A stretch of 64,000 nucleotides of DNA from Alphaproteobacteria bacterium. Its GTDB lineage: Bacteria; Pseudomonadota; Alphaproteobacteria; MPNO01; UBA830. Positions 17,772 to 42,131 of this stretch are shown here, piece after piece. The position numbers and the translations under genes were made by a program. Location of the stretch: the NCBI GenBank assembly GCA_965243135.1, contig OZ251539.1, positions 3,776,001 to 3,840,000 of the forward strand. The letters are read 5' to 3'. Under the pieces are notes generated by a model. It worked only from the letters and a program-made list of their open reading frames with translations, made no database searches and had not been told where the DNA came from. Within the stretch, counting starts at the first letter, position 1, and each line of letters opens with the position of its first letter.

Positions 17772-18152
17772 CGTCACGGGACGCGCGCGCCAGTTCGCGG
17801 GCGTATGGTTTCCGACCGCGCGGCAACGCGGCAGCTGCCCCGAGGCGGCGGGAGGGTCGATAGCTGTCGCCAGCGATTTGCAATGATCTGTTTCATCTCC
17901 CCCCTCAACTCCGATTGCTTTCAGATCGTCGAGTTCTGGTTGCCCTTGACGACCATAGTAGGCTTCCCCGTCCAAAATCAACGGGTAGTTTCGGCCTGAG
18001 CGTGTACGTCCGGACAGCAAGCGTTCGCTCGCGGGGCGAGCCGCCAAGCCACCTTGGGCAGGTCGTTCCATCGCCCCGCGAGCGAACGCTTGCGATGGGG
18101 GTATAGACAGCGCTGCGTCTGATCGTTAATCTAATCGTCAAGTGGAGATCTT

Positions 18153-19403: not shown

Positions 19404-19720
19404 GCGTGCCGCGCGATAATGGGCTTCGCCCGGCTGCCGTCTCGGCATCTTGCCTCGCCGACGAGCGCAGCAACCTGTGCTGCCTCCGCTTCCTGTGCGG
19501 AAATGCCGCTCGGACGCCATGCACGGCGAGCCATCCGGAGCGAACTCGGAAATGATCGCTGCGCTGCCTATCTACGAAATCGACCGGGGTTGCCGCGCAG
19601 TCATTCGCGCAACCGCGGGGCGCGGCCGTCGCGGTCGATTGCCGTGACTTCGCGATTAGGAAATGTTAAAGAAACAACGAGCTTCGCTGGATGATCTTCG
19701 TGGGTCAACCAAGAATGCCG

Positions 19721-19746
19721 TTGCTCCCCCCCCCCCCCGCTAGGTT
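19721..19746 (+). promoter_or_regulatory. C13 homopolymer in a promoter-like element upstream of the peptidase-ABC gene
   Basis: TTGCT-C13(19726-19738)-GC-TAGGTT. Confidence 0.4.
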
Positions 19747-19764
19747 TTCCGGGTAAACGTTTGC

Positions 19765-21963: not shown

Positions 21964-21967
21964 AGCG

Positions 21968-24904
21968 ATGACCGACAACAACGTCGTAGCCGAACGCATC
22001 AATGGCGTATCCTTCAGGGCCGGAGCGAACCAGCCCTTTCTCATGGACGATCCCGCCCGCGCTTTCTGGGTCGAGGACGGACATCTGGACATCTTCGCGA
22101 TCAAGCTCCTCAGCAACGAGGTCGCTACCCGTACGCCCTTCGTCACCCGCGTGCCCGCCGGAAGCATGTGCTTCGGCGCCCAGCGTCTGGCGGGCCGCGG
22201 GGGATCGGAGGGTCTGTTCGCCTTCCTCGCCGTGCCTTCCATCGACGCTGTCATCACCGTGGGCGAACGCGCCCGCGTCGCCTCGAAGGAAAATTTCGAC
22301 CTCGACGCGGTGATCTGGATCGACGAGTGGGTCGCCCGGCTCTCCGAGTTCCCGGTCCGAGGCGGAAGCCCGCCGCCGCGCAACGCGGCGCTGCTCGATG
22401 CCGACCCGAACGTGCCGTATCCCGCGGGCACCGCCGTAAGCGCGCATCACTCGGACATCGTCTGGGTTTCCGCCAACCGGCCGATCAGCTTCATCGGGGA
22501 CGGCGATCTGACCATCGGCGACGGCAGCCAGCTCGTGCCGCTGTCCGAGCGGACCTGGTTCGAGCTGGACGGCGACACCGAAGTCACGGCGCTTCAAACT
22601 CCGGCCGTCGTCATCGCGGAGCGGCTTTGGCCGTCCCTGGATCGTTTCAGCGCCCTTATCCTCGAATATGCGGCCATCGCCGAACGACGGAAGATCGATA
22701 CCTACAGCGACTATTATCAAACCCTGCTGCGGTCTCGCGAGACGACCACGACGAAGATGTTCGGGACCCTCGGCCAGGTTCTGGGCGTAGCGCAGGACCA
22801 GGAACAAAAGATCGCCGCCTCGTCCGGCGAGACTCCGCTGCGAACGGCGGTAAGCATCGTCGCCGAAGCCGCCGGGGTCACGCTCGAAATCGCGCGCAAC
22901 GTGAAGGAACCCGCCGATCCGGAGGAGGCAGTGGAAACGCTGGTTCGTCCGTCCGGCATCCGCTCGCGGAGAATCACGCTCACCGCCGACTGGTGGCGGC
23001 GGGACGGGCCTTCCTTGGTCGCGCTCGCAGGCGAGGAAAAACGGCCGATCGCTCTGCTTTCGGACGGGCGCGGCTCCTATCGCGCGGTCGATCCGACCGC
23101 CGGCAAGAGCTTCCCCGTTAGCGAAAAGGATGCCGCCGCGATCGGGCGTCACGGCGTGATGCTCTATTCGCCGCTTCCGCTGGATATCAAGGACGGGCTG
23201 TCGGCGCTGCGCGCTAGCTTGCGCGGGCGCTCGAGGGATCTCGGCGTCCTGATAACCATGGCCGTTCTCGGCGCTCTGGTCGCCTTGCTTACCCCTGTGG
23301 CGACCGGCGAGCTTCTCGCGGAGGTCGTCCCGCGCGTGGATACCTCGATGTGGATCGCCTATCTCGTCGCGTTGGTGTTCGCCGCTTTCGGCACCGCGAT
23401 GTTCGACGTGGTGCGCGCCCTTGCGTTGTTGCGAATCGAGGGCCGAATCGACGAGCGGCTCCAGGCGGCCGTGTGGATTCGCCTGCTCTCGCTGCCGGCG
23501 CCTTTCTTCCGCAGATTCACCGCCGGCGACCTGGCCGACCGGGCGAACGGCATAACCATGATCCGGCAGATGCTGACCGGCGCGACCGCGACCGCGGTGA
23601 TCGGCGGCGTGTTCTCCGTCTTCAGCTTCGCTTTGCTGTTCTACTACAGCTGGGAGCTCGCGCTGAGCGCGGCCGCCTTGCTGCTCGTTCTCATCGCCGC
23701 CACCTGGATATTCGCGCGCGGCGCAATGAAGCACCACCGCGCGGCGTTCACCGCCCAAGGATTGATCGACGGCTTCGTTTTCCAGTTGATCACCGGACTC
23801 TCCAAGCTGCGGATGGCGAACGCCGAAGCCGACGCGCTCGTGCATTGGGCGGAGCGCTACGCCGTCCAGAAACGCCGGACGCTTTCGGCGCGCCGCTGGG
23901 CCGCGGCCCAGTTTACCTTCAACAGCATGTTTACGCCGCTCGCCTCGCTCACCCTTTTCGCCCTCATCTGGTACATGCTTATCGAGGGCGGACAACAAGC
24001 CAGTTTCGGCCTCGCGGACTTCCTGTCCTTCAACGCCGCCTTCGGGCAGTTCGCCGCTTCGATGGTCGGGCTGACCGCCGCATGGACGACCGTGATATCG
24101 ACCATCCCGCTCTTCGAGCGCGTCCAGCCGATCCTCGAAGAACGGCCCGAGATAGCCGTGGGAGGCGCCGACCCGGGCGATCTAACCGGCGAAATCGAAT
24201 TTTCGAACGTGTGCTTCCGCTATCTTCCATCGGTTCCGAACGCGGTCGACGGAGTGTCCTTTCAGATCCGACCGGGCGATTTCGTGGCCTTCGTCGGTCC
24301 GTCCGGTTCGGGAAAGTCGACGATCTATCGGCTGCTGCTCGGCTTCGAGGTCCCGGATTCAGGCGCGATCTTCCTCGACGGCAATGACCTGTCGAGCCTC
24401 GACATGGCGGCGATCCGCTCCCGCATGGGCGTGGTCTTGCAAAACAGCCAGCTTTCCGCCGACAGCATTCTGAAAAACATCACCTGCGGCGCGCCGATGA
24501 CCATGGACGAAGCTTGGGAGGCCGCCCGGGCGGTCGGTCTCGCAGAGGACATCGAGGCGATGCCGATGGGGATGCACACGGTGCTGCCCGAGGGAGGGGG
24601 GGGGTTGTCCGGCGGGCAGAAGCAGCGGCTGCTGATCGCCCGCGCCATGGCCCGGAAACCGCGCATCATGCTGTTCGACGAGGCTACCAGCGCCCTCGAC
24701 AACCGCACCCAGGCGATCGTCCAGGCATCGCTGAAGCAGCTCAGCATCACCCGCGTGGTGATCGCCCACCGCCTCTCCACGGTGCAGGACGCCGACCAGA
24801 TCTTCGTCCTGGAGGCGGGTCGAATCGTCGAGTCCGGACGCTACGACGATCTCATGGAACAAGACGGCGTCTTCACCTCTCTGGCGCGGCGGCAGGTCGT
24901 CTGA
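21968..24904 (+). CDS. NHLP export ABC transporter permease/ATPase subunit without peptidase
   Basis: WWRRDGPSL, TM domain, GPSGSGKST, LSGGQKQR, FDEATSALDN. Confidence 0.93.
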   Translation: MTDNNVVAERINGVSFRAGANQPFLMDDPARAFWVEDGHLDIFAIKLLSNEVATRTPFVTRVPAGSMCFGAQRLAGRGGSEGLFAFLAVPSIDAVITVGERARVASKENFDLDAVIWIDEWVARLSEFPVRGGSPPPRNAALLDADPNVPYPAGTAVSAHHSDIVWVSANRPISFIGDGDLTIGDGSQLVPLSERTWFELDGDTEVTALQTPAVVIAERLWPSLDRFSALILEYAAIAERRKIDTYSDYYQTLLRSRETTTTKMFGTLGQVLGVAQDQEQKIAASSGETPLRTAVSIVAEAAGVTLEIARNVKEPADPEEAVETLVRPSGIRSRRITLTADWWRRDGPSLVALAGEEKRPIALLSDGRGSYRAVDPTAGKSFPVSEKDAAAIGRHGVMLYSPLPLDIKDGLSALRASLRGRSRDLGVLITMAVLGALVALLTPVATGELLAEVVPRVDTSMWIAYLVALVFAAFGTAMFDVVRALALLRIEGRIDERLQAAVWIRLLSLPAPFFRRFTAGDLADRANGITMIRQMLTGATATAVIGGVFSVFSFALLFYYSWELALSAAALLLVLIAATWIFARGAMKHHRAAFTAQGLIDGFVFQLITGLSKLRMANAEADALVHWAERYAVQKRRTLSARRWAAAQFTFNSMFTPLASLTLFALIWYMLIEGGQQASFGLADFLSFNAAFGQFAASMVGLTAAWTTVISTIPLFERVQPILEERPEIAVGGADPGDLTGEIEFSNVCFRYLPSVPNAVDGVSFQIRPGDFVAFVGPSGSGKSTIYRLLLGFEVPDSGAIFLDGNDLSSLDMAAIRSRMGVVLQNSQLSADSILKNITCGAPMTMDEAWEAARAVGLAEDIEAMPMGMHTVLPEGGGGLSGGQKQRLLIARAMARKPRIMLFDEATSALDNRTQAIVQASLKQLSITRVVIAHRLSTVQDADQIFVLEAGRIVESGRYDDLMEQDGVFTSLARRQVV

Positions 24905-24910: not shown

Positions 24911-25708
24911 TCAAGCGGCCGGCGCCCCGTCGCTTACGCGGCGCGCGTATTCGTGCCATTCCGCCGAATAGACGGCGTCGTGCAGGGTCAGCCGCTTCTC
25001 GCGCGGTTCATAGACTCCGCAATGCAGCATGTTGCTCCTGTAGACGACGAGGTCGCCGGGAGCCGCCGCGACATTGACCGCTCCGCAGGATTTCAGCTTT
25101 CCGGGCAGCGCGCTCCGCAAGGCGTCGACCGCCTCGAGGTCCAAGGGGCCGATGCGGCAGTCGCGATGGACGGCGCGCGCCCGAACCAGTTGCGATTCGT
25201 CTTCGCTGTCGTCCCGCGCATGGGATCCCGGTATTACCCACAGGCTCGAATCCGCGAGCAAAGGGATGTTGATCTGATTGAAGTATCTCAGATCCCCGGT
25301 TCGAGCCTTCCATGCGTCGAAATCCAGATCGTCCAGGAAATCTCGATAGTCCCGGTGCAGCCCCGTCGACCACCATCGGTCGAGCGGCTCGATCAGAAGA
25401 CCCGTGAGATGGGGATCTCGCGACATTTTCGGGGCGGGCAGTATCGTTCCCCGGAACAGCGCGTCGATAGACCTGTCGAGTTGCGGATTGTCGTAGAACG
25501 CCGCGATCCAGGCCGAAGCTCCGGGATGAGATTGAAGCGGCTGAACGCGCTGGATGTTGCGGTCGCGGGTCAAGAGCCGCGCCCGTTCCGGCAGGCGCTC
25601 GACGAAGCGGATCGCCGAAGCGACTTCTTCGGTCCCGAAGACGCCGCGAATATGGACGAAGCCATCCTTGATATAACGGTCGCGCAGGTCCAAAGCCAAG
25701 TACCGCAC
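24911..25708 (-). CDS. Phytanoyl-CoA dioxygenase (PhyH) family Fe(II)/2OG oxygenase, about 265 aa
   Basis: YIKDGFVHIRGVF, LHRD (HxD), LWVIPGSH, PGDLVVYRSNMLHCG. Confidence 0.8.
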   Translation of the reverse strand: MRYLALDLRDRYIKDGFVHIRGVFGTEEVASAIRFVERLPERARLLTRDRNIQRVQPLQSHPGASAWIAAFYDNPQLDRSIDALFRGTILPAPKMSRDPHLTGLLIEPLDRWWSTGLHRDYRDFLDDLDFDAWKARTGDLRYFNQINIPLLADSSLWVIPGSHARDDSEDESQLVRARAVHRDCRIGPLDLEAVDALRSALPGKLKSCGAVNVAAAPGDLVVYRSNMLHCGVYEPREKRLTLHDAVYSAEWHEYARRVSDGAPAA

Positions 25709-25713: not shown

Positions 25714-27390
25714 TCAGTCGAGGAACATGAGGCCGGGTTTGAGGTTCCAGCGCGTTCGCTGCGCCTCGCGCTCGAGATCCGGCAGATCCCGGATTCCGAG
25801 CTCGCGCGGCGTCAGCGCCCCGATCGCGTCCAGAAGCGAATACGCCTGCACGAGGGCGTCGCGCTCGGCCGTCAGCGCCCTGACCTGGTAAAGCACGAGA
25901 CTTCGTTCGGCGTCGAGCACTTCTCGCGTCGAGCGCTCGCCGATAGCCGTCTCTCTGCGAATGCCGGCGAGCGCGACCCGCGCCGCCTCCACCGCAGTCG
26001 CCAATGCCGCCCGGCGCTGCCGGGCCGCGAGCATGCCGTGCCAAGCGCTCGCAGCCCGCTGCGCCGCATCGCGCTGCGCGGCGGCGCGTTGGTCGCGGCG
26101 CTGCGCCAAGGCGTGTCCCGCCTGGCGGACCCGCGTCCCGACCGAGCCGGCCTGGTAGAGCGGGATTCTCAGCTGGACGCCCAAGCTCTGGTCGGTGCTG
26201 TTGAGAAAGCCGTCGGTGCCGTGTCCTATGGTTCTTGCGACGGTGGCCCTCAGATCGACGCTAGGTCCTATGTCGCCCTTGGCGGCGCGCACTGCATGGG
26301 CGGCGGCCCGTTCCGCGTAAACGGCGGCGCGCACCGAGGGGTGCCGGTTCCGGGCAGCGTCCAGCGCCGCGTCCAGCGTCTCGGGCAGGCCGGCCGGCTC
26401 GTTCGCAGGTTCCAACCCGACCGCCGGCAGTCCCACCAGCGTTTCGAACAACGCCTGCTGCACTTCGAGACTGGCCTTGGCCGAGGCCATGTCGGCGGCG
26501 GCGATCTCCCGCTCCGCATCGGCCTGGGCGACGTCGGCCCGGGTGCGATCGCCGACCCGGAACTGGGCCCTGGTCTCGCGGGCCTGACGTTGAAAGGAAG
26601 AGAGCGCAGCCTCGCGCAACCTGACGGTGCGCTCGGCGCGAAGCACGTCGAGATAGGCCGTGGCCGCGCGCAGCAGCACGGCCTGCTCGGTGTCTTCGAC
26701 GACGGCGTGGCTCTGCCGCACGCCCTCCTCCGCCTGGCGCAGCCCTGCCGTGTCCCGTCCGCTACGGAAGAGATTGTGGGTGTAGGCGAGCTCCAGCGAC
26801 TGCCGGTCGCTGCCGTCGCTGCCGGTCTCCAGGCCGGGCAGTGGAAACAGAGCGGCCCTATCGGGGATGAAGCGTTCCGTGGTGGTGTCGATCACCGGAA
26901 GGCGCCCAAAAGAAGTAGGAGCGCCCTGTCTGGCGGCGGTGCCGATCCGGGTTCCGCTCGCGCCCGCGGTGAGCTGAATCGTCGGAAACCATGCCGAGAG
27001 CGCGAGAGGGACGCTCTCGTGACGGGAACGAGCTGCGGCGCGGGCGGCCTGCACGTTCGGGTTGGATCGCGCCGCTTCGACCAGCGTTTCCTCGATGGTC
27101 AGCGCGCGAGCCGGAACGGCAGCCAAAACCGCCGCGAAAACCAGGAGCGCGCAACGCCGGGCCGTTTCAAGGCCGTTCTTGACCGGCAACCCGAGAGGCG
27201 CCGCAGCGCGCGGCGGGCTCTTTTGCGCCCTTCGCCGCCGGACAGCAATTCGATCTGCTCGGGATTTCAAGATCCTCGACCTTGAACGCCCAATCCGCGC
27301 ACGCTTGAAGTTCGGGACGCCGCAGACAAGCCGATCGCACCCAAACCGTTCGAGGAAGAGAACCGAGTACGCCTTGTCGAGATCGAACAT
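25714..27390 (-). CDS. TolC-family outer-membrane efflux protein; start uncertain
   Basis: Signal-like CALLVFAAVLAAVPARA, ALTIEETLVEAARSNP, AYLDVLRA, RIPLYQAG, GERSTREVLDAE. Confidence 0.85.
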   Translation of the reverse strand: MFDLDKAYSVLFLERFGCDRLVCGVPNFKRARIGRSRSRILKSRADRIAVRRRRAQKSPPRAAAPLGLPVKNGLETARRCALLVFAAVLAAVPARALTIEETLVEAARSNPNVQAARAAARSRHESVPLALSAWFPTIQLTAGASGTRIGTAARQGAPTSFGRLPVIDTTTERFIPDRAALFPLPGLETGSDGSDRQSLELAYTHNLFRSGRDTAGLRQAEEGVRQSHAVVEDTEQAVLLRAATAYLDVLRAERTVRLREAALSSFQRQARETRAQFRVGDRTRADVAQADAEREIAAADMASAKASLEVQQALFETLVGLPAVGLEPANEPAGLPETLDAALDAARNRHPSVRAAVYAERAAAHAVRAAKGDIGPSVDLRATVARTIGHGTDGFLNSTDQSLGVQLRIPLYQAGSVGTRVRQAGHALAQRRDQRAAAQRDAAQRAASAWHGMLAARQRRAALATAVEAARVALAGIRRETAIGERSTREVLDAERSLVLYQVRALTAERDALVQAYSLLDAIGALTPRELGIRDLPDLEREAQRTRWNLKPGLMFLD

Positions 27391-27834: not shown

Positions 27835-28632
27835 TCAGCCAGCGTCGCCTTCGTGGCGCAGCCAATGGGTGGCGAAGCGCCTCCACCGCTCCAGCGGCTC
27901 GCAACGGCTTATCTGCAAGCTGTCGTAGGGTCGGAGAGCCCCCGGGTGGTGCACCATCCTCCCGTCGGCCTGCACCACGGCCGCGTGATTGGGCACCTTC
28001 GACCGCACACGGAACAAGACCACGTCCCCGATGCCGGAATCCGCCGCGTCGATGGCCCGGAACCCCGCCTTCTCAAACCCCGCCCGGTAGAGATCCAGAC
28101 CCTCCAACCACCAGTTCCAGTCGCGCGGAAAGTCGGGCAGCAGGACGTTGCGCTCCTGACGGTAGTAGTCGCGAATGAGCGAGTAGCAATCCGTCACCCC
28201 GTGCCGGAACGGCCGGTTCAGCAGCGGCAGCATGGGACACTGGTCCCCGAACCAGAAGCGATCGACGCACCGCGACCGGTCGGACACCACGACGCCGAAG
28301 GGCACCGCCAAGGCCGCCTGCGCGCGCATCTCCGCCGCGCTCGGAACGAACAGCGACAGGTCGAGGTCGTCGTTTCCGGCCGCGGTCGAGGAGCGCGTGT
28401 GCACCGCCGCCAACAAGGCGCCGTGAGTTTCCTCCATCCAGCGCAGCGCCACCTCCTCGACCCGGAAATTGGCGCGCGAGTTGTCCGCGACCTCGGCGAC
28501 GGAGCGATAGACGGGGTCGGCGCGGCTCCCGAACACGGCCCCCAGCGCCTCCCCGGGAAACGCCTCGAGCGCGTGGGCGTCCATGGCGTCCTGGAGACCC
28601 TCGAACAGCCGGGTCTGCGCTATCCAGCGCAT
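27835..28632 (-). CDS. JAB/Mov34 + NlpC/P60 (C40) protein, lambda tail assembly protein K-like, copy 1
   Basis: HALEAFPGEALG, VHTRS, PSAAEMRAQ; LLNRPFRHGVTDCYSLIRDYY, VPNHAAV, MVHH. Confidence 0.88.
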   Translation of the reverse strand: MRWIAQTRLFEGLQDAMDAHALEAFPGEALGAVFGSRADPVYRSVAEVADNSRANFRVEEVALRWMEETHGALLAAVHTRSSTAAGNDDLDLSLFVPSAAEMRAQAALAVPFGVVVSDRSRCVDRFWFGDQCPMLPLLNRPFRHGVTDCYSLIRDYYRQERNVLLPDFPRDWNWWLEGLDLYRAGFEKAGFRAIDAADSGIGDVVLFRVRSKVPNHAAVVQADGRMVHHPGALRPYDSLQISRCEPLERWRRFATHWLRHEGDAG

Positions 28633-28769
28633 TCGAATCCGCTCCGGGGTTCGCGCCTGCGCCGCGGACCGTTCCTCGTTAGGCGAACGGCGGCGAGGCG
28701 CGGTCCTGCCGACGGCGCGCTTGTCGCGTCCGCAGGGAGGAGCTGCAGGTTCTGGCGCCGCTTGCGGTG

Positions 28770-29140
28770 GCGCGCTGGCGCAAGGTTCTGAAATCCGGAG
28801 TCGACGCCCGCCGCGCCGCCGAACGGCTCGAACGCGCGGCCACCGTCAACGCCGCTTGGCGCTCGGCGACGCTGCTCGGTCGGGCAACGCCGCGACTTCC
28901 CGCCGAGGCGACGTTCTCCGATGTCGAGATCGGCGTTCTCCGCGACTTCGCCACGGACCTCCCCGAGCCTCTCGACCTGAACGCCGCGGTGCTGGCGATG
29001 ATCGGGGTCGCCGCGACGGACCGCCCGGCTACAAGGCGATCCGGCAAACTCGCGGCTCATGGCGCAGGCCTGCGGAACCGGGTGGCCGCCGACGAGCCGC
29101 GCCAGCAACTGCGTCCGCACAAAACTTGTGACTAGGGGAG
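28770..29140 (+). mobile_element. IS4-family (IS50/Tn5-like) transposase C-terminal remnant with possible right end
   Basis: KVLKSG..ERLERAATVNAAWR..LLGRATPRLPAE..PLDLNAAV; ACTTGTGACTAG near 29124 resembles Tn5-type ends. Confidence 0.6.
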
Positions 29141-29234
29141 CGCCTGACCCTCGACGCGCCGGAAAAAGGCGAGCGGAGAAGGACGGAAGGGCGACGGTCG
29201 TCACGGCCGCCACCTTCGCGTTGGAAACGGCATC

Positions 29235-29565
29235 CTAAATTCTGTCCCTCGCGGTTGCGAAGCTGCTCATGCTTCCGGCCGAATTCACGCAGGAAAGAAT
29301 GCTCCCGACGGTTCTCCCCGAGCTCGCCGCGCCACTCGACTTGCCGTCGGCGCCTCGCCCTGGAGCGCCTGGTTCGGGTCGGGAGGCATGGCCAAGCGGA
29401 AGGCGTCGCGGGCGTTGAGGGCAACGTTCACGTCCGTCGATCCCGCGCTCTCGCGGAACGTCCCTCGGACGCTCCTCGACCTCGCGCGACCGATCTTGGC
29501 GGCAGGCGTCGGCGAGGCCCTAAAGGACGATGCCTTGCCGAACGCCGCAGATGTCTTCCGGATCG
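29235..29565 (-). pseudogene. Decayed NHLP precursor; residual core GKSSGAASSGRTVGSILSCVNSAGSMSSFATARDRI
   Basis: Nucleotide similarity to P4 and P5; deletion removes part of the AVAGG site and shifts frame. Confidence 0.8.
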
Positions 29566-29635
29566 TCTCCCCTGCGCGGTTCGGGCGGATGCTCCACCGG
29601 CGCGTACTATATCGCCCCGCTTAATGTAACCTTGT

Positions 29636-29745
29636 TTGGACTCCACCGCATTGCTGCTGGCGCAGCCCAAGGGACGCGAACGTCAATTTCGCCATCCCGG
29701 ATGCCTTGTGGTCTCCACCGCATTGCTGCTGGCGCAGCCCAGGGA
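29636..29745. repeat. About 33-bp direct repeat duplicating the P5 core tail
   Basis: CTCCACCGCATTGCTGCTGGCGCAGCCCA at about 29641 and 29713. Confidence 0.85.
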
Positions 29746-30090
29746 GCTAACTGAACTCGCGGTGGAAGGAATGCTCCCGACGGTTCCCCCCGAGCTCGCC
29801 GTGCCGCTCGTCTTGCCGCCGGCGACCGCCGTCAGCGCCTCGTCCTGGAGCGCCTGGTTCGGATCGGGAGGCATGGCCAGGTGGAAGGTGTCGTGGGTGT
29901 TGAGGACGACGTTCACGTCCACGTCCATCGGCACGTCGATCCCGTGCTTCTGCAGAACGTCCTTCGGATGCTCCTCGACCTCGCGCAGCCGATTCTCGTC
30001 GGCGTGGCAGGCGTCGGCGAGGTCCTGAAGAATGATGCCCTGCTGGCGAACGTATTGGAAGATGCCTTCCTGGTGAATATTGTCGTGCAT
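29683..30090 (-). CDS. NHLP/proteusin precursor P5 (135 aa); core KTSGTASSGGTVGSIPSTASSVSSLGCASSNAVETTRHPGWRN
   Basis: VVLNTHDTFHLAMPPDP, LQDEALTAVAGG; leader is a paralog of P4. Confidence 0.92.
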   Translation of the reverse strand: MHDNIHQEGIFQYVRQQGIILQDLADACHADENRLREVEEHPKDVLQKHGIDVPMDVDVNVVLNTHDTFHLAMPPDPNQALQDEALTAVAGGKTSGTASSGGTVGSIPSTASSVSSLGCASSNAVETTRHPGWRN

Positions 30091-30169
30091 GGTCGTCTCC
30101 CCTGCGATGTCCAGACTTCAGACGGACGCTCACGGTCCAAGACGCGGAATTCGTCCGCGAATCTTTAAG

Positions 30170-30211
30170 ATCATGCACAGCGGGGGGGGGGGGGGGGTAA
30201 ACCCTAATTTC
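30170..30211 (-). promoter_or_regulatory. P5 promoter: GAAATTAGGGTT box, -35 TTTACC, C16 tract (20-nt spacer), -10 CATGAT
   Basis: G16 at 30182-30197 on the + strand; aligns with the P4 promoter but is 4 nt longer. Confidence 0.6.
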
Positions 30212-30340
30212 ACGCAGGCGTGGCGCGACTCGGCGGCGGTCACCCTGTTCCGCAGCTCGTAGGCCTGCGCCTTCGGTCGCGAGTCGCCAGATCGCCTCGC
30301 AAAAGCCGGAGAAGAATGCAGCGCAGACCGCAACCGTGGC
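30212..30340 (-). mobile_element. Inverted copy of the IS4 3' remnant
   Basis: Reverse complement resembles 29026-29105 (GGCGCAGGCC...GCGGAAC.GGGTG.CCGCCG). Confidence 0.5.
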
Positions 30341-30536
30341 GTAGGATATCCCTGCTTCGGCAGCATATTAGGGTTGCGACCGTTTATTCTTGCTGCGAAA
30401 TTGCCGGTTCGGCGATTCTGCCGGGCCGGCGCGACCGGACTTCCAGGCCGTTTCGTCGGCGCCGGACAACGCCCGGTCCGTTCGTCCGACGGGGAAGCGA
30501 CCGCAGCGGTGGACCCAAACCTTGGAGCGGCATTGA

Positions 30537-31331
30537 ATGTTCGGAATAAAGCAGACCCGGCTGTTCGAAGGACTTCGCGGCGCCATGGAGACGCACGCGC
30601 TCCAAGCCTTTCCGGGAGAGGCGTTCGGCGCGGTGTTCGGGAACCCGGATCGTCCCGCCTACCATCCCGTCGATCAGGTCGCGGACAACTCGCGCTTGGG
30701 TTTCCGGGTCGACAGGGCCGCGCTGCGCCGGCTGGAGGAGACTCACGGCGCCTTGCTGGCGGCGGTGCACACGCGCTCCGCGACCGGGGACGGGGACGCC
30801 GATCGGCTGCTGTTCATCCCGAGCGACGCGGAAATGCGCGCGCAGGCGGCCCTCGCGGTGCCCTTCGGCGTGGTGGTCTGCGACCGGTCGCGCTGCATCG
30901 ATCGTTTCTGGTTCGGGGATCAATGCCCGCCGCTGCCTCTGCTGAACCGGCCGTTCCGGCACGGGGTGACGGATTGCTATTCGCTCATCCGCGACTATTA
31001 CCGGCAGGAGCGGAACGTTCTGCTGCCCGACTACCCGCGAGACTGGAACTGGTGGGTGGAAGGTCTCGATCTCTACCGGGCGGGCTTCGAAGAGGCCGGG
31101 TTCCGGACCATCGACCCGGCGGACGCCGACGACGCGGACGCGGTCATGTTCCAGATGCGGTCAGACGTGCCGAATCACGCGGCCGTGCTGCTGGACGACG
31201 GGTATATGTTGCACCACCCAGCGGCGCTGCGGCCTTACGACCCTCTCCGAATGAGCCATCGCGAGCCGCTGGAGCGATGGAAGCGCCATGTCACGCACTG
31301 GGTGCGCTACGAAGGCAGTCAGAACCTGTAG
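30537..31331 (+). CDS. JAB/Mov34 + NlpC/P60 (C40) protein, lambda gpK-like, copy 2
   Basis: Close paralog of 27835..28632; DCYSL, NHAAV, MLHH retained. Confidence 0.88.
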   Translation: MFGIKQTRLFEGLRGAMETHALQAFPGEAFGAVFGNPDRPAYHPVDQVADNSRLGFRVDRAALRRLEETHGALLAAVHTRSATGDGDADRLLFIPSDAEMRAQAALAVPFGVVVCDRSRCIDRFWFGDQCPPLPLLNRPFRHGVTDCYSLIRDYYRQERNVLLPDYPRDWNWWVEGLDLYRAGFEEAGFRTIDPADADDADAVMFQMRSDVPNHAAVLLDDGYMLHHPAALRPYDPLRMSHREPLERWKRHVTHWVRYEGSQNL

Positions 31332-31960
31332 GCGATCCCGCCGAGGAAGGCATGGGCCTTCCCGCCGGTTTGGCCGAAATAGAGCCATTCCCCGCGCATG
31401 CGCCATCGTCCGTCCAAGGCAACATCCGCGCCCGCTCCCACGAGCGGCGCGACATCCTCGTCGTCAACAGTGAACTTGCCGCACGGTCCAAGTTGGTCCG
31501 TGACCTTCCTCTTCCAGTAGTACGCACCCAGCTTGACGAAGGGCGCCACCCTTCCCGCGTCCAGCGGCACCCGTCCCACGGCCGCGCCATAGACGGTCGA
31601 CACCGACTCCTCCTTTCGCGGATCGGTCACGGACTGGCCGTTAAAAGGAACGCACGGGAAATCTCCTCTCAGGATTTGTTCGAGCGCCTTATGCCTGATC
31701 CATCCCGCTTCGACCGCGAAGTGGCGCGAGAATTCGAAGCCTGCGTATGCAGTGTACATGAGGGCGTCGTCGTCTTGGCTGCATAAACCGCTGTCATTGC
31801 AGCTGTCGCTGAGATCTTCGAGGTAGCTGAACAACGCATGACCTGCCGAGACGCCGACATACGCGCCCGTCGGCGAACTCTCGTCGCCACGGGCCGAGTT
31901 CGCCAAACCAAGCGCCAACAGCGCTGCCGCAGCGGTTCCGACGAATGCGTTCGCTTTCAT
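31319..31960 (-). CDS. OmpA-like outer-membrane beta-barrel protein (213 aa)
   Basis: Signal peptide, GAYVGVSAG, YAGFEFSRHFAVEAGW, C-terminal GIAYRF. Confidence 0.85.
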   Translation of the reverse strand: MKANAFVGTAAAALLALGLANSARGDESSPTGAYVGVSAGHALFSYLEDLSDSCNDSGLCSQDDDALMYTAYAGFEFSRHFAVEAGWIRHKALEQILRGDFPCVPFNGQSVTDPRKEESVSTVYGAAVGRVPLDAGRVAPFVKLGAYYWKRKVTDQLGPCGKFTVDDEDVAPLVGAGADVALDGRWRMRGEWLYFGQTGGKAHAFLGGIAYRF

Positions 31961-32104
31961 TGTATCTCCTTCCCGTGAATACCTACGACCATGGAGTTTG
32001 TTTGCAACCGACTGACGCTTCAAACTTGAAGGGGCCCCGAATTCGGACACGGAAAACTGCAGATTTCCCCAAGACCGCCGTTCCCGCTTATTGTACGCAG
32101 GCGC

Positions 32105-32614
32105 TCATTCGCTGTCCATAGCGGCTTCCTTCAGGAAATCCAGCAATAGGACGATCCGGCTCCGCTCGGATCGGTTCCATGCCTCGTGCTCCAAGGTGTC
32201 GTCGAAGATCAGACATCTGTTCTCTTCCCATCGTCTGGTTTCGTCGCCGACTCGCAGCTCGCAGACCAGGGGAACAATCAGGCCCAAGTGACACCGGAGC
32301 ACCTTACTGGTATAGCCGACGTGGGGTTTGATGTGAGCGCTGGGCCCCAAGCGCGAGAATCCTGCGGTGACGAGATTTGGCACCCGCTCGACGATCTCGA
32401 CCGTTCGAGGGCACATGGCGCAGTTCTCGGAGAGCTTTTCCCCGAACCAGTAGAAACCGAAGACGTCCCACCCCTCGTCGTAGAGCATCTTTTCCGGCCA
32501 CGGCAGAAAGTGGTCGGAGGTCAACAGCCGGTCGAGCTCCTCCCTGACCGCCCCTGCGCCCCCCTCGAGAACTTCGACGAACGGAAAATCCGCCGGATCA
32601 AGAAAGCCGGTCAT
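32105..32614 (-). CDS. Aspartyl/asparaginyl beta-hydroxylase family oxygenase 2 (169 aa)
   Basis: CPRTVE, AGFSRL, IKPHVG, RCHLGLIVP, FDDTLEHEAWN, RIVLLLD. Confidence 0.9.
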   Translation of the reverse strand: MTGFLDPADFPFVEVLEGGAGAVREELDRLLTSDHFLPWPEKMLYDEGWDVFGFYWFGEKLSENCAMCPRTVEIVERVPNLVTAGFSRLGPSAHIKPHVGYTSKVLRCHLGLIVPLVCELRVGDETRRWEENRCLIFDDTLEHEAWNRSERSRIVLLLDFLKEAAMDSE

Positions 32615-33201: not shown

Positions 33202-34236
33202 ATGAACGAACCGACAAGCACGCGATGCCCGCCTTCATGGGAGGCTGTCCTCGGCGCCGGGAACGCGGCCGCCGTCGTTTACCCGACGCTGGCGGTCGAA
33301 GACCTTTCCGCCCGTCTGCTCGCGTATCTCCGCGACGCGCTCGCCGACAACCGGCTAGGCTACGCGGAACCGCCGTCCCGAATGGAGGGCGGCTCCCAAG
33401 CCCAAATCTACCGCTTCGGACTGAGCGGCGCTCCCCCCGATCTCGCCCGAACCTTGGTACTGTGCCTGTATCCGCGGGGCTACGGCACGGGCAGGATCGT
33501 CAAGGAAGGCCTCGTTCAGAACGGACTCGCCCGCCGGTCGTATCCCGCCCCCCGGGTTCACGCGGCATGCACCGACATGTCGATCCTCGGCGGCGCGTTC
33601 CTGGTCATGGAATTCCGTCCGGGCGACCTCTTGCTGCACGCGCCGCCCGAGACCATACCCGGTATGCTGGCCGAGACCCACGCAGCCCTGCACCGTATCG
33701 ACCCGCGGCCGGTCGTCGAGTCGTTGCGCGCGCAGGGTTGGATAGCTTCGCAATACCGATTCGAGGGAGAACTGGCGGTGCTCCGCGACCGGACCGGGAG
33801 GCATCCCCGCCTGCGCCCGGTCGCCGACTGGCTGTCGGCGAACCGGCCCCCGGAACCCAGGCCGCTTTCGATCTGCCACGGCGATTTTCACCCCCTCAAC
33901 GTTCTCGTCCGGGACGGCGAGGTCACTGGCGTGCTCGACTGGTTCGACGCTGTCGTCGGCGATCCGGCGCTGGACATCGCTTGCACGACGCTGTTGATCC
34001 GGGTCTTCGGCCGCCGCGTCATGTTGCCGTCGGAGGCCGACCATGTAGCAACGAGATATCTTGAAGCCTACAGGCCCCCGAAGCCGTTCGACCCCGAACG
34101 CCTCGACTATTATCGGATCAGGCGTTGCCTCATCGGCCTGTTGGACGGAGCGGACGGTCAGGAGATGTGGCGACATCCCTCGGTCGCGCGGGAGCTCGCC
34201 AGCGATATCCTCCGAGTTACCGGAGTCGCCGTATAA
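33202..34236 (+). CDS. APH/phosphotransferase-family kinase (344 aa)
   Basis: FLVMEFRPG, ICHGDFHPLNVL, GVLDW, GDPALDIA. Confidence 0.85.
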   Translation: MNEPTSTRCPPSWEAVLGAGNAAAVVYPTLAVEDLSARLLAYLRDALADNRLGYAEPPSRMEGGSQAQIYRFGLSGAPPDLARTLVLCLYPRGYGTGRIVKEGLVQNGLARRSYPAPRVHAACTDMSILGGAFLVMEFRPGDLLLHAPPETIPGMLAETHAALHRIDPRPVVESLRAQGWIASQYRFEGELAVLRDRTGRHPRLRPVADWLSANRPPEPRPLSICHGDFHPLNVLVRDGEVTGVLDWFDAVVGDPALDIACTTLLIRVFGRRVMLPSEADHVATRYLEAYRPPKPFDPERLDYYRIRRCLIGLLDGADGQEMWRHPSVARELASDILRVTGVAV

Positions 34237-34657: not shown

Positions 34658-36991
34658 TCAGAAGAACACCGCGACGGGATTGAGGTCGGCCTCGGGCGTG
34701 GGCGTCTTCCGCCACCCCATCTTCACCGGCACGTCGTACAGCCGCCCCGGTCCGAAGCGCATCCAGAAATGCCGCAGACCCGGCACGATCGTCTTCGCCA
34801 CCGGCATTCCGATGTCCGGCCGCGTCTGGTCCAGAACCAGGAACTCCAGGCCCATGCCTTCCACCAGCGCCCGGCAACGCTCCACGTCCTCCCGCAGATC
34901 CGTCGTCTCCGGAACCGGGTAGTCCACCGCCCCGCGCTTCGCCGCGCCCGCCGCCGGCGCCAGATACGGATGCTCCGCCAATTTCGCGTTCTTCCACCAC
35001 CAGAGGGTCTCCGGATCGTCCTGGAGATAGCTCCCCCCGTCGATGCCCACGTCCCGCACCGCTTTCATGTCTTGATTCAGTTCGCACACCGCCCGCAGCG
35101 CCGCGATATGCGGGTCGGCATGCGCGCCGGCCGCGAGGATGATGTCCTCGGGCTCCTTGTCGACGCGCCGCGAGACAGCCACGAACACCGGCACCCCGAG
35201 ATCGTTGGTCACGTCCAGAAGCCACACGTCGCGGCGGAAGGAGGCGTAGTACTCCCGCGTCCGCGACAGATAGCCGTCGCCGAAGCTGTCGATGTCCACC
35301 TCCGGCATGGACAGCCGGTTGTACCACCAGCACGCGAACGCGTCCCGCTCCGCCAGTTCGTAGAAGCCCTGAAGGATCGCCTCCTCCAGGGTGTTCCCCG
35401 CCGCGCAGCCGTTCGAGTCCGGACCGCAGTAGACGACGCCTCCCTCGGTCGGCGTCGAAAAGTAGAGCATAGCCGTCGGCAGCCAGCGGTGGCGCCCCGC
35501 CGTCAGCGACCACGCCGGCGTCCAGTCCATCTCGACGGACGGGTCGAAGCGCGTCGTGACGTAGTTGAACAGGGACCCGAAGGCGTTGATCTCCTCCGCG
35601 CGCTCGTACTGCCGGTCGCTGTAAAGCATCACGTCGTTGGGGTGGATCGCCTCCCCCTCCGCGAAGTCCTCGAACCGCGCCCGGCGCCGGATCTCGTCCC
35701 CGTGATACACGCCCGAGTAGCGTTCCACCGCCTCGCACAGCGCGCTCGCCTCCGCCTGCTCCGGCGTGCTGCCCTTGCCCGAACTCTTGGTCCGCAGGCT
35801 GTTGCGCAGCATGTGCAGGCTATCCGCCTTGAGCGCCAGATTGCTCCCCGCCCAGTACACGTGCAGCCAAGAATCCGCCGGGTCCGTGGCGCGCATCAAC
35901 TGCGTCACCACGCCGCTGACCGGACTCACCAGGTGGCGGTACTTGCGCACCGTCTCCCCCGGCGGAACCGAACGCAGGCCGCCGCTGTTCCGGACCCGCT
36001 TCGGACTCGAACCCAACGCCACCGGCGCCGGCGCGCGGTCGGGGCGCCGCAGCGCCTCCTCGCCGCACGCCGCGCACTGCGGACGCCGCATGACCGGATG
36101 CCGCTCCCCGGCGAGATCGTACAGCGACAGCGACAGCGCATGCTCGTGCAGCGCCGCCGCCTCCCCCAGAACCACCCATCTCGCGATCTCCGTCGCCGCC
36201 AGGCCGAGCACCGCGTCCGCGAACGGCGGAACCGTCACCTGCGGCACCACGCCCGCGCCCCCCGCGTTGCGCAGATAGTTCTCGACCTCGTTGTTGCCCC
36301 GCATCCGGTGCGCCAGGCACGCCCAGCACGCTCCCCCCTCGCCGGGGCGGAACACCGGACCGAACAGCGGCCACGACCCGTCGGCCTTCACCAGAACCCA
36401 CGGCACCCCCGACGCCAGATGGCGCCGGTTGGTCTCCTCATGCTCCAGGTAGTCGGACGCCCGGATCACGTTCAACGTCGCGCCGTCCGCGACGACCGCC
36501 AGCCCCATCGCCGCCAGCGCCGACCCCAGGCGACCGCCCTCGTCCCCCGAAACCGACACCCGCGCCGAACCCAGCCGCTCCTCCGCCCACCGCGGCGACA
36601 CGCCCACCGAACACCAGAACGCCGCCGCGTCCCGGTCCAGCCCGAATTCGCCCGAAACCGCGTAGCCCTTCGACGCCAGCGACACCAGCGCCGTCTGGAT
36701 CTCCAGCGGACCGTACGTCCCCGACAGCGCCGCCGCGATCTCGCGGCGCGTGCGCGTCCCGTCGAGCAGCGGCAGAAGATCGACGTAACGCCGCCCGTAG
36801 AGCGCCGCGTTGAAGGTCTCCGAAACCAGCAGCGCCGCCTCGCCGCCGAGCGGGCGAACCTCCAGATGCGGCGACAACAGCGGCCGCTCCACCGTGCCGC
36901 GATCCGCCTCCGTGACCCGGAACAGGGCCCGGGCCTCGCCCGCGGGCCGGTCGAACAGGCCCGGCGCCCCGGACGGCTTGGCGCTCTCCAT
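34658..36991 (-). CDS. Fused RRE/E1-like - YcaO cyclodehydratase, copy 2 (777 aa)
   Basis: Same motifs as copy 1; about 26 aa differences counted by eye. Confidence 0.95.
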   Translation of the reverse strand: MESAKPSGAPGLFDRPAGEARALFRVTEADRGTVERPLLSPHLEVRPLGGEAALLVSETFNAALYGRRYVDLLPLLDGTRTRREIAAALSGTYGPLEIQTALVSLASKGYAVSGEFGLDRDAAAFWCSVGVSPRWAEERLGSARVSVSGDEGGRLGSALAAMGLAVVADGATLNVIRASDYLEHEETNRRHLASGVPWVLVKADGSWPLFGPVFRPGEGGACWACLAHRMRGNNEVENYLRNAGGAGVVPQVTVPPFADAVLGLAATEIARWVVLGEAAALHEHALSLSLYDLAGERHPVMRRPQCAACGEEALRRPDRAPAPVALGSSPKRVRNSGGLRSVPPGETVRKYRHLVSPVSGVVTQLMRATDPADSWLHVYWAGSNLALKADSLHMLRNSLRTKSSGKGSTPEQAEASALCEAVERYSGVYHGDEIRRRARFEDFAEGEAIHPNDVMLYSDRQYERAEEINAFGSLFNYVTTRFDPSVEMDWTPAWSLTAGRHRWLPTAMLYFSTPTEGGVVYCGPDSNGCAAGNTLEEAILQGFYELAERDAFACWWYNRLSMPEVDIDSFGDGYLSRTREYYASFRRDVWLLDVTNDLGVPVFVAVSRRVDKEPEDIILAAGAHADPHIAALRAVCELNQDMKAVRDVGIDGGSYLQDDPETLWWWKNAKLAEHPYLAPAAGAAKRGAVDYPVPETTDLREDVERCRALVEGMGLEFLVLDQTRPDIGMPVAKTIVPGLRHFWMRFGPGRLYDVPVKMGWRKTPTPEADLNPVAVFF

Positions 36992-37574
36992 CAAAAAAAC
37001 TCCCCGATGCGGCGGCGAACCGTGGATCAAACTCCGGGACCGGAGAATACGATCGCGACATCGCGCGTCAAGCGCCGCGCCAATCTAACGTCATGCAGCG
37101 AACTTTAGATGCAAGACCCGCGGCCTGAAGGTCGCGAGGGCCTACAATAGCCGGGGCCGACATTCGCTTGCGACCGAGCGGGCTGGGCGGCCTTGGCCCT
37201 TGGGAGGAAGGGCGGGCTTCGCGCCGCGCGAAGCTTCGGTCACGGAAGGCGGCGGTCGCCACGGACGCGGCGCTTGCCCGCGAGTCCGAGACCATCGCCC
37301 TGACGCGAGCGGGCCGCGGCGTCCGGCTATCGTCCGGCTGCGGCGTTCCGCCCGAGCCGGCGGCCGGTCAGGCGTTCCCCGACGTAGACATTGAAAGCCG
37401 CGTCGTCGACCCGCTCGCCGCCCCAGGGGCCGTCGGGATCGTCGCGACGATCAAGGGCGCCGTCCGGTAGTGGTCCGCCGCGCACCGCCGCTCGACGACC
37501 GCCATGGTCAGAAAGCGGGGCGAAGGGCTTCCCGTCCTCGTCGCCGGGTCGCCGAGATCCGCCTGCTCGACCGT

Positions 37575-37901: not shown

Positions 37902-38159
37902 ATGGTCGAAAGTACGGATAACAATCTCGACAAGGCGCTCGCCGATCTCACCCCCGAGCGGGTCGAACGCAATCAACAGATCTACGCCGACATTGTCGCC
38001 AAGTACTACGGCGATCCTGACTTCAAGGCGAAGGTGGATGCGGACCCGACTCGGGTTCTCAAGGACGAGGGCCTTGAGATCCCCGAGGGCGCCAACGTCA
38101 AGTTGCTGTTCAACACTGAGAAACTCCTGCATATCGTGTTGCCGGCCCCTCTCAAATAG
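37902..38159 (+). CDS. Stand-alone NHLP leader-like protein with no Gly-Gly site or core (85 aa)
   Basis: IVAKYYGDPDFKAKVDADPTRVLKDEGLEIPEGANVKLLFNTEKLLHIVLPAPLK then stop. Confidence 0.85.
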   Translation: MVESTDNNLDKALADLTPERVERNQQIYADIVAKYYGDPDFKAKVDADPTRVLKDEGLEIPEGANVKLLFNTEKLLHIVLPAPLK

Positions 38160-38739: not shown

Positions 38740-39153
38740 ATGCCCCCTATCAACTTGACGACCGTGCTTCACATACCGGTGTCGCCCGAAGGACTCCTAC
38801 AGAGCGTGCGCCAGCTCGCGTCCATCGCGGATGAGTACCGCAAGGATCCGGAGTTTCGCTCGAACCTTAGCTCGGACCCGGTCGCCGCCCTCTCCGAGAA
38901 CAGCATCGAGGTGGTGCCCGATACGGAAGTGCGCATCGTCGAGGACACCGACGAGGTTTTCCATTTCATCCTTCCCCCCGACTTCAACGCCAGCGTGGGG
39001 GACGAGGTGCTCAATGCGGTCGCCGGCGGCGGCAAGACCGCCAGCAGCGCGACCACCGGACCCGGCTATGGGGGGCCCCGAGGACCCTCTTGCGGATGCG
39101 GCGCAAGCTGCATCGACGCATGGACCTCACGAGGGGGAAGCGGCTCCATCTGA
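38740..39153 (+). CDS. NHLP/proteusin precursor P6 (137 aa); core GKTASSATTGPGYGGPRGPSCGCGASCIDAWTSRGGSGSI
   Basis: YRKDPEFRSNLSSDP, VRIVEDTDEVFHFILPP, VGDEVLNAVAGG. Confidence 0.9.
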   Translation: MPPINLTTVLHIPVSPEGLLQSVRQLASIADEYRKDPEFRSNLSSDPVAALSENSIEVVPDTEVRIVEDTDEVFHFILPPDFNASVGDEVLNAVAGGGKTASSATTGPGYGGPRGPSCGCGASCIDAWTSRGGSGSI

Positions 39154-40015: not shown

Positions 40016-40354
40016 TCAGGCGGAAAGCGCGGCGACGGCCTGCGCCCGGTCGGCGTGAACCGGGATGACCTTGTCGAAACCGGCAACCTCGACGATTTCC
40101 CGGATGGAATCCGGGAGCGAGCAGAGCGCGAATTTCGCGTCCCGTTTCCACAGATTCTGGGCGGTCAGCAGAATGGTCCGGAGGCCCGCGCTGCTGATGT
40201 AGGACAGATGCTCAAGGTCGATGATCACGACGCTTTCGGTTTCGCCGATCGCCGCCGTTATCGCCTCCTCGAATTCCCTGACGTTGATGCCGTCAATGCG
40301 TCCCTCCGCGCACGCAATCAGCGCTCCACTCTCCCTTTCCGTCTTTATTTCCAT
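40016..40354 (-). CDS. STAS-domain anti-sigma factor antagonist (112 aa)
   Basis: EGRID, IIDLEHLSYISSAGLR (phospho-Ser motif), IREIVEVAGF. Confidence 0.92.
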   Translation of the reverse strand: MEIKTERESGALIACAEGRIDGINVREFEEAITAAIGETESVVIIDLEHLSYISSAGLRTILLTAQNLWKRDAKFALCSLPDSIREIVEVAGFDKVIPVHADRAQAVAALSA

Positions 40355-42080: not shown

Positions 42081-42131
42081 AATCCGACCGGGCCGGCGGG
42101 CGGACGGCGCGCCGGCCCGGAAGGCGGCATT

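Follow-up and report, generated by a model that had tools for sequence, protein, structure and literature searches.

A phage tail protein K-like lineage in NHLP/YcaO/LanMbC clusters of an alphaproteobacterium and other bacteria

Phage tail protein K (TAPK; lambda gpK, annotated as 'C40 family peptidase' and collected in PHROG 30) joins a JAB domain to an NlpC/P60 domain and is encoded beside ubiquitin-like TAPI and TAPJ (Iyer, Burroughs and Aravind; PMC1779556). Small folded domains that end in glycine are the presumed substrates both of JAMM enzymes and of phage K (PMC1779556). Two genes of this kind are found in a stretch of 64,000 nucleotides from the genome of an Alphaproteobacteria bacterium (assembly GCA_965243135.1, contig OZ251539.1, positions 3,776,001 to 3,840,000), the whole of which is referred to here as the window. 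They lie within a gene cluster for a ribosomally synthesised and post-translationally modified peptide (RiPP). The K-like proteins resemble TAPK in their homology over both domains, in their architecture and in their Cys-His-His set. They differ from it in that the Glu/His/His/Asp set of the JAMM site is broken and the loop between HxH and Ser is longer by 8-11 residues. Their genes are embedded in RiPP clusters and have no L, I or J neighbours, and so lack the ubiquitin-like TAPI, the predicted substrate of phage K. The evidence set out below gives good support to the conclusion that a lineage of phage tail protein K was recruited into NHLP/YcaO/LanMbC clusters, where its metalloprotease site was lost and its cysteine-hydrolase site was kept.

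NHLP (proteusin) precursors carry a leader that is a folded, protein-like domain (PMC12537861, PMC10858898). In described clusters, this long leader is removed by free-standing proteases, namely the cysteine protease PoyH of the polytheonamide pathway (family C1A), which recognises ...AAGG at positions -7 to -1 (PMC10885120), and the serine protease CcaF of the dehydrazole carnazolamide (family S8; PMC10676384). Like PoyH, the K-like protein is a free-standing candidate enzyme with a predicted papain fold in an NHLP/proteusin cluster. Unlike PoyH and CcaF, the family belongs to C40/NlpC-P60, carries an additional MPN-minus domain and is known here from sequence. Export of such peptides may involve another papain-like cysteine peptidase, the C39 domain of ABC exporters (peptidase-containing ABC transporters, PCATs; NHLM_micro_ABC1), which acts on Gly-Gly leaders. 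One such exporter is encoded in the same cluster, but it is membrane-bound and coupled to export and belongs to a separate gene and family. A 2023 review of RiPP leader proteases names the cysteine families C39, C1A and C96, and NlpC does not occur in it (PMC10885120). In the literature searched for this work, no RiPP pathway was described as including an NlpC/P60 or K-like protein. The K-like proteins would add to RiPP biosynthesis a candidate enzyme family that is absent from the list in the review.

Fold and catalytic residues of the K-like proteins

Copy 1 (27835-28632, minus strand) is an intact open reading frame (ORF) of 265 aa and copy 2 (30537-31331, plus strand) is an intact ORF of 264 aa. 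Each encodes an MPN-minus and an NlpC/P60 domain, and the two represent paralogue lineages 1 and 2, respectively. Both frames were recovered at exactly these positions, in agreement with the original prediction, which was made from the sequence of the window and described two intact paralogues facing outward around a precursor gene, P5. It had also placed copy 1 in the same orientation as tolC and phyH, and a TolC-like ORF followed by a PhyH-like ORF is indeed found on its strand.

Both copies match PHROG 30 ('minor tail protein'), with E values of 3.7e-54 for copy 1 and 1.5e-59 for copy 2. The Pfam model NLPC_P60, which has a cut-off of 23 bits, gives 39 bits for copy 1 and 41.2 bits for copy 2, while Prok-JAB (PF14464) reaches 17.2 bits in copy 1, below its cut-off of 25, and does not match copy 2. 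Relatives were detected by tblastn in 1710 phage records, all at less than 60% identity; 1226 of these matches span at least 80% of the query. Among the annotations of the phage genes matched are 'tail tip assembly protein', for the best match (40% identity), and 'tail tip assembly protein K'. The nearest neighbours in the ESM Atlas are exclusively large viral clusters of NlpC/P60 + JAB proteins. No NCBIfam model matches copy 1 or copy 2, and a sequence search of solved structures with copy 1 returned chance-level matches only (E of at least 0.23).

With 30 relatives as input, AlphaFold2 gave a confident model of copy 2 (pLDDT 86.8, pTM 0.83). It predicts a two-domain fold, with an N-terminal MPN/JAB domain and a C-terminal domain of the papain-like NlpC/P60 fold. 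Searched with Foldseek, the model matches MepS/Spr, SagA, CwlO and LytE through its NlpC/P60 part, and BRCC36, Rpn11, COP9 and Pyrococcus JAMM1 (PfJAMM1) through its MPN/JAMM part; the chains matched include members of the BRCA1-A/BRISC, proteasome lid and COP9 complexes. Taken together, these results show the architecture to be that of phage protein K.

The two domains differ in the state of their active sites. Residues C147, H214 and H226 of the NlpC/P60 domain (copy 2 numbering) are present in copies 1 and 2 and in a third copy found elsewhere in the genome, and they are conserved at 90% or more both in the clade described below and in the canonical one. The DC, NH and HH motifs thus read as the original prediction had them. 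It had also called the JAMM site degenerate, and HTRS and PSxxE do stand in place of HSHP and PSxxD. The JAMM motif E...HxHx7Sx2D is not intact: copy 2 has HTRS and SxxE at a spacing of 15 residues, and in both window copies the second His of the zinc ligands is replaced by Arg and the Asp by Glu. Because the JAB fold is kept while the metal ligands are gone, the N-terminal domain is predicted to be an MPN-minus pseudo-enzyme, with its zinc site destroyed and its loop remodelled. Pseudo-enzymes of the MPN-minus type include the inactive partners of Rpn11, CSN5 and BRCC36. The K-like proteins share with them an MPN fold without metal ligands, but carry the dead domain in one chain with an active-looking papain fold instead of pairing it with an MPN-plus subunit.

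This pattern is shared by a whole clade. Motifs were counted in the 120 best of 203 database relatives; 75 of these keep the complete JAMM set of Glu, His-x-His and Ser-x-x-Asp, in 44 the Asp is replaced by Glu or Gln and one is truncated. The derived clade comprises 47 sequences, made up of 44 database proteins and the three copies of this genome. Its JAMM zinc site is destroyed in all 47 members by the change of Asp to Glu or Gln. Among the derived database proteins, only three of 44 keep both His of the HxH motif and only one keeps the Glu together with both His. The NlpC/P60 Cys is kept in all 47 and the full Cys-His-His set in 45 (for the database proteins, catalytic Cys in 44/44 and catalytic His in 43/44). 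The spacing from the second His position to the Ser is 15-18 residues throughout the derived clade and 7 residues in 66 of 77 canonical sequences, the derived loop carrying the insert noted above. Arg53 and Phe110 are further fixed residues specific to the derived clade.

Gene neighbourhoods and descent

A scan for K-like loci, taking one genome per species, returned 34 loci, which were sorted by motif and not by context. Nine have the derived motif (L014-L022) and are 50-83% identical to copy 2. Their hosts are Alphaproteobacteria, together with one gammaproteobacterial, one Vicinamibacterales and one Acidobacteriota genome. Searches by tblastn for the tail genes H, M, L, I and J gave no match at any of these nine loci, and NHLP ORFs or YcaO/LanMbC genes lie within 10 kb at all nine. 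A YcaO gene, a dehydrogenase gene and a DUF4135 gene are present together within 10 kb at seven of them. NHLP ORFs were detected by tblastn at eight; the ninth, L016, has the enzymes but no precursor within its flanks. The canonical-motif loci from genomes present the opposite picture, with I and J at 25 of 25, L at 24 of 25 and RiPP markers at none. Metagenome contigs yielded 58 matches, all of them loci with the canonical Asp, with at least one tail gene each and with no RiPP markers, and no further RiPP-clade locus was found among them. These counts describe a pattern and not a probability, as kin are not independent of each other.

The K-like lineage is thus found with the NHLP clusters of several phyla, outside tail operons. 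An examination of the neighbourhoods of the closest homologs had been proposed together with the original prediction. All homologs of at least 50% identity with fetched context (9/9 loci) lie in NHLP/YcaO/LanMbC neighbourhoods, while the homologs in tail operons are at most 44% identical and keep the JAMM site, so that the closest homologs are not confined to prophage tail operons. The neighbourhoods of these homologs therefore support the view that a phage tail protein was domesticated and is part of the RiPP cluster.

The linkage is also seen at closer range. In a search across the order, a K-like gene was found in three of 60 other genomes (G004, G026 and G049), in each case inside such a cluster. 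A LanMbC gene is present in five of 61 genomes of the order; the K-like gene occurs in four of these five and in none of the 56 others. When 400 genomes sampled evenly across the class were searched, none besides these matched at E ≤ 1e-60. In the window itself, tblastn queries with five tail proteins (H, M, L, I and J), taken from lambda and from a Halomonas phage, detected no tail gene in the 64 kb, as might be expected from the original remark that no other phage genes are visible. A reading of the two genes as a prophage remnant was rejected on this basis.

Of the 108 rows of a quickly built tree, 55 make up the single group of the derived sequences (SH-aLRT support 100). A more careful tree of 51 rows separates the rows with RiPP context from those with tail context by a single branch (support 100/100), and the state of the Asp position changes once. 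Movement from phage to RiPP cluster is the more plausible direction, given that the derived lineage has lost a site and that phages hold by far the larger number of copies. The ratio of nonsynonymous to synonymous substitution rates (dN/dS) is 0.23-0.44 over the gene as a whole, with 0.12-0.34 in the NlpC/P60 part and 0.29-0.63 in the MPN part. The K-like genes are thus under purifying selection, with both halves constrained and the dead MPN half less so. A structural-assembly gene of phages would in this way have been taken over by a secondary-metabolite pathway, the signature of the transfer being one site lost, one site kept and a loop insert. The same signature could be used in genome mining, where a K homologue with SxxE/Q in place of SxxD and a long HxH-Ser loop would mark a sub-family of LanMbC/YcaO proteusins in Proteobacteria and Acidobacteriota. 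The finding may also illuminate the role of K in phage tails, which is so far a prediction (PMC1779556).

The relation of the two copies to each other is older than their arrangement suggests. Their proteins are 74% identical (194/262), and their DNA forms an inverted repeat in two segments, 539 nt long (82% identity) and 285 nt long (77%), in which the similarity ends about 19 nt beyond the reading frames. The arrangement had been read as an inverted duplication. On the tree, however, copy 1 groups with the third copy and with the gene of L021, while copy 2 falls with the in-cluster K-like genes of L014-L016, of which it is an orthologue. A recent local inverted duplication was rejected for this reason, as each copy has different relatives, and the two are best regarded as old paralogues. 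Copy 1 and the third copy (G000:141534-142325) are 96% identical in protein sequence and 94.7% identical in DNA over 888 nt.

The scraps of IS4 elements that had been proposed upstream of each copy were not confirmed by Pfam, blastn or six-frame searches. No Pfam match at E ≤ 0.01 was obtained for the ORFs at 28767-29135 (plus strand), 28620-29213 (minus strand) and 30220-30549 (plus strand). A blastn search against a plasmid collection returned nothing for the stretches in question, and a six-frame search of the genome with PF13340 and PF01609 gave no match in window positions 28633-30536 at E ≤ 1. With neither IS4/IS5 transposase domains nor known insertion sequence DNA matched, IS4-family remnants are not supported by these searches.

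The third copy of the gene has a precursor of its own 77 nt upstream on the same strand, and the pair occupies G000:C1:141068-142325 (L004, L005). The core of this precursor, KGGKRLNPTWQRITGREYSEC, is short, not rich in Ser/Thr and very different. The surroundings consist of a gene for a 4922-aa repetitive autotransporter-like protein and a stretch with an AAA_30/UvrD_C helicase, a PIN and a C5-methylase gene. The same pair of precursor and K-like gene recurs at L021, where the precursor likewise has a different core that is not rich in Ser/Thr, and no other maturase was found near either pair. Because the third copy and L021 share this pair, the smallest conserved unit is taken to be an NHLP precursor with a K-like gene, two genes in all.

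Possible roles of the K-like protein

A role as an enzyme that acts on leader-bearing precursors is the reading to which most weight is given, and it is put at about an even chance. The original prediction had named a peptidase or trimming enzyme, an acyltransferase or an immunity factor as candidate roles, among which the results do not discriminate. Inspection of the N-terminal sequences of copies 1 and 2 reveals no visible signal peptide, and the protein is therefore thought to be cytoplasmic. There it would meet the NHLP precursor before export, with the leader still attached. The NlpC/P60 cysteine would form an acyl-enzyme intermediate, which could be resolved by hydrolysis of a peptide or amide bond (trimming, processing) or by acyl transfer. 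The dead MPN domain might serve for docking, and the folded leader with its invariant ...V-A-G-G end is the most plausible partner. Docking of this kind would reuse an ancestral, and itself predicted, habit of the family, that of gripping a small folded Gly-ended domain such as phage TAPI. The reaction might also be other than Gly-Gly cleavage, with trimming, loss of a C-terminal tail, transfer of an acyl group to a conserved Lys, or turnover of the leader or the product as candidates. An alignment (A2) of 19 precursors from the window and L014-L022 shows that their leaders end in an invariant V-A-G-G, and that a Lys follows in 18 of the 19, across very different cores. Co-folding of copy 2 (alignment A1) with P5 (alignment A2) scored 0.00 in both runs, a result that speaks neither for nor against binding.

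A more specific proposal can be framed, although it is held only tentatively and is distinctly less probable than the general one. The K-like proteins may constitute a new class of RiPP maturation enzymes, the first of the C40 (NlpC/P60) family in RiPP biosynthesis. Their mode of action would resemble that of a ubiquitin protease, with the machinery borrowed from a phage tail. The zinc-less MPN domain would grip the leader end ...VAGG as JAMM enzymes grip ...GG, and the papain fold would cut, or transfer an acyl group, at the near-invariant Lys of the core. A precursor and a K-like gene would then make up a self-sufficient minimal RiPP system.

Several observations weigh against a role in maturation, or against the history on which it builds. 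The C39 domain of the exporter encoded in the cluster keeps its Gln, Cys and His, so that removal of a Gly-Gly leader needs no K-like protein; with an intact C39 exporter already present, a second Gly-Gly protease is not required. Close homologues of this exporter occur in all four K-bearing genomes examined. Nor is the K-like gene universal in clusters of this type. Genome G002, which is 99% complete and belongs to the same genus, encodes a LanMbC homologue of 56% identity whose frame contains a TAG, and no K-like match was found in this genome even with a profile at E ≤ 0.01. The gene list of the characterised cca cluster (PMC10676384) likewise includes no K-like gene. Purifying selection is only moderate, with a dN/dS of up to 0.63 in the MPN half. 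The family tree is unrooted, and the direction from phage to cluster is inferred. Context was fetched for 12 of the 47 clade members (the nine loci and the three copies of this genome), and the counts overstate independence because most of the genomes are metagenome-assembled and several are close kin.

The presence of the C39 exporter also lends weight to an alternative in which the K-like protein is a hydrolase for self-protection or housekeeping, degrading product that is prematurely active or re-imported, or the leader of about 90 residues that is left after export. Its apparently cytoplasmic location, with no signal peptide visible, its intact hydrolase triad, a Gly-Gly cleavage already supplied by the exporter and the accessory, non-universal occurrence of the gene in LanMbC clusters would all be explained. 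This alternative is nonetheless considered unlikely, as the minimal unit of precursor and K-like gene without a nearby maturase, seen at copy 3 and L021, better fits an enzyme that acts on the precursor. The paralogue lineages moreover pair with different precursor types, although leader recycling would still be compatible with this. A little less probable again is a partnership with the Asp/Asn beta-hydroxylase-like cupin PF05118, by which the K-like protein would recognise a hydroxylated site instead of the leader, and hydroxylation and cleavage (or transfer) would be coupled at one residue. At L014, L017, L020 and L022, four of the nine loci, from Alphaproteobacteria and Acidobacteriota, the gene immediately preceding the K-like gene on its strand is a PF05118 gene, and gaps of about 5-85 nt separate the two. 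Such a gene is also found no more than about 1.5 kb away at L015 and L016, and no more than about 0.8 kb from copy 2. This arrangement suggests that the two genes form a module. However, tblastn found no PF05118 gene beside the K-like gene at L018, L019 and L021, there is none beside copy 3, and the partnership overlaps with the preferred reading of an enzyme acting on precursors instead of replacing it.

Domains of the MPN-minus type usually act as scaffolds, which would be consistent with a non-catalytic assembly factor, a chaperone or scaffold for the maturation enzymes or for the export apparatus. Phage K is itself described as a tail-assembly protein, and its partner TAPI is absent from the mature tail (PMC1779556). 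Such a function is improbable, given that the catalytic Cys and His are retained in nearly every derived database protein and that the NlpC/P60 half is the more strongly constrained. The least probable of the alternatives is that the genes are left over from a prophage, or encode peptidoglycan endopeptidases that loosen the wall for export. Most NlpC/P60 proteins are peptidoglycan hydrolases, as are the Foldseek neighbours MepS, SagA, LytE and CwlO, and TolC-like and OmpA-like genes adjoin the two copies. The K-like proteins, though, have neither a signal peptide nor a wall-binding domain, their frames are intact with a dN/dS below 1 in every copy, and their linkage to NHLP clusters is conserved across phyla at loci devoid of tail genes.

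The surrounding cluster, its precursors and the precursor box

Clusters that combine LanMbC with YcaO were named dehydrazoles by Pei, Zhu and Nair in 2023 (PMC10676384). The characterised example, cca, uses an S8 leader protease, and NlpC, P60 and JAB are absent from the main text of that paper. The window shares with dehydrazole clusters LanMbC, YcaO, a dehydrogenase and an NHLP precursor, and it has in addition a radical SAM protein and cores rich in Ser/Thr/Cys/Gly. No S8 protease or methyltransferase domain was detected among the window ORFs scanned with Pfam; what the window has instead are the K-like genes, oxygenase genes of the PF05118 and PhyH types, a gene for an APH kinase, and TolC-like and OmpA-like genes. 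The gene set of a dehydrazole, with a YcaO gene, an azoline dehydrogenase gene, a DUF4135 gene and an NHLP precursor that has a core rich in Ser/Thr/Cys, was found side by side. The cluster is assigned from its gene content to a putative LanMbC + YcaO 'dehydrazole'-like proteusin type. The locus is composite, with two YcaO genes, two PF05118 genes, one LanMbC gene and seven intact NHLP-type ORFs, of which six are precursors and one is a leader-only protein, in addition to a degraded precursor, and in this it recalls a cluster with two YcaO genes described in PMC10676384.

The left-hand part begins with three NHLP precursors on the plus strand (5462-5848, 5926-6306 and 6325-6684). They are followed on the same strand by the first YcaO gene (6853-9189) and the azoline dehydrogenase gene (9227-10597), both identified with Pfam, and by the gene for the LanMbC-type DUF4135 protein (about 10594-13143). 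The latter protein matches DUF4135 proteins with 1248 bits in tblastn and is 80% identical to a PF13575-bearing protein of L009. A block at 14162-24904, in which TIGR03797 is matched at E 1.5e-253, begins with a radical SAM gene (14162-15658, minus strand; Pfam), an NHLP precursor (15689-16069, minus strand) and the second of the two hydroxylase genes (PF05118; 16971-18071, minus strand; Pfam). It continues on the plus strand with the genes for HlyD (18153-19403; Pfam), the C39-ABC exporter (19765-21963), whose C39 domain was discussed above, and a second ABC exporter (21968-24904; Pfam).

Adjoining copy 1, on its strand and downstream of it, is the gene for a TolC-like outer-membrane efflux protein (25714-27200, minus strand; Pfam OEP, E 1.2e-54), the start of which is uncertain, the frame being open to 27834. 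Downstream of tolC lies the gene for a PhyH-like dioxygenase (24911-25700, minus strand; Pfam PhyH, E 1.9e-6), also of uncertain start. On the other side, convergent with copy 2, lies the gene for an OmpA-like beta-barrel protein (31319-32050, minus strand; Pfam OMP_b-brl, E 3e-15). An OmpA-like neighbour is also found beside the K-like gene at L014-L016. Next come the PF05118 gene near copy 2 (32105-32614, minus strand; Pfam, E 6e-48), an APH-family phosphotransferase gene (33202-34236, plus strand; Pfam, E 2.4e-32) and the gene for the second YcaO cyclodehydratase, which carries a fused leader-binding domain (34658-37030, minus strand; Pfam YcaO, E 8e-99; TIGR03604, TIGR03882).

Precursor P5 (29683-30090, minus strand) is a protein of 135 aa that matches TIGR03793 at E 1.1e-13. 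Its leader ends in ...AVAGG, and K is the first residue of its core. The gene has the orientation of copy 1 and diverges from copy 2. In the interval separating it from copy 1 lies a degraded tandem copy of P5 (about 29235-29620, minus strand), which was recognised from the direct repeats D1-D4 that it shares with P5 and from a three-frame translation, and which is broken by frameshifts and an in-frame stop. Short-read contigs from independent runs match pieces of 29235-29620 with 0 to 2 differences, so that the breaks are not an artefact of assembly. The last part of the P5 core, ...LGCASSNAVE, occurs a second time immediately after the stop codon, as a 36-nt direct repeat (29637-29744 region). 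In total, the genome has 23 NHLP-like ORF hits.

A promoter-like box precedes many of these precursors. It reads roughly TGAAATTAGGGTTTAC, followed by 8-16 C and GCTA. The 9-mer core, ATTAGGGTT, has 17 copies in the genome, of which 13 point towards an NHLP ORF no more than 600 nt away. The sites are at 5395, 16175, 30200, 30367 and 38647 of the window, at G000:141036 and at 11 other positions of the genome. The box upstream of P5 occupies 30182-30208 on the minus strand, with AACCCTAAT at 30200-30208, which is ATTAGGGTT on the minus strand. This core is followed by a homopolymer tract of 16 bases (30182-30197), and one contig of run X4 lacks 6 of its letters. The original prediction had noticed that copy 2 carries a variant of the box, and the core ATTAGGGTT is present at 30367-30375 on the plus strand, without the TGAAA prefix and without poly-C, 170 nt upstream of the ATG of copy 2. 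All three K-like copies are thus linked to a box: one lies ahead of P5, and hence also upstream of copy 1, another ahead of the copy 3 precursor, and the variant ahead of copy 2. Among the other RiPP loci the box was found only at L021:16706; it is therefore lineage-specific and of no use as evidence across genomes. The length of its poly-C spacer varies between sites. The box could be the site of a dedicated sigma factor or regulator, with a spacing that varies by slippage.

Two more NHLP-type ORFs on the plus strand were detected by hmmsearch with an NHLP profile. One is a further precursor (38740-39153), which has a box at 38647. The other (37902-38159) encodes a leader-only NHLP-like protein of 85 aa, which ends in ...HIVLPAPLK and has no core. 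The same 85-aa protein occurs at L017, L019 and L020 and is highly conserved among clusters of Alphaproteobacteria, Gammaproteobacteria and Vicinamibacterales. It may be a stand-alone leader that acts in trans. Beyond these ORFs, a STAS-domain gene (40016-40354) and a TRAP transporter operon (DctP, DctQ, DctM; 40986-44104) mark the apparent right-hand end of the cluster.

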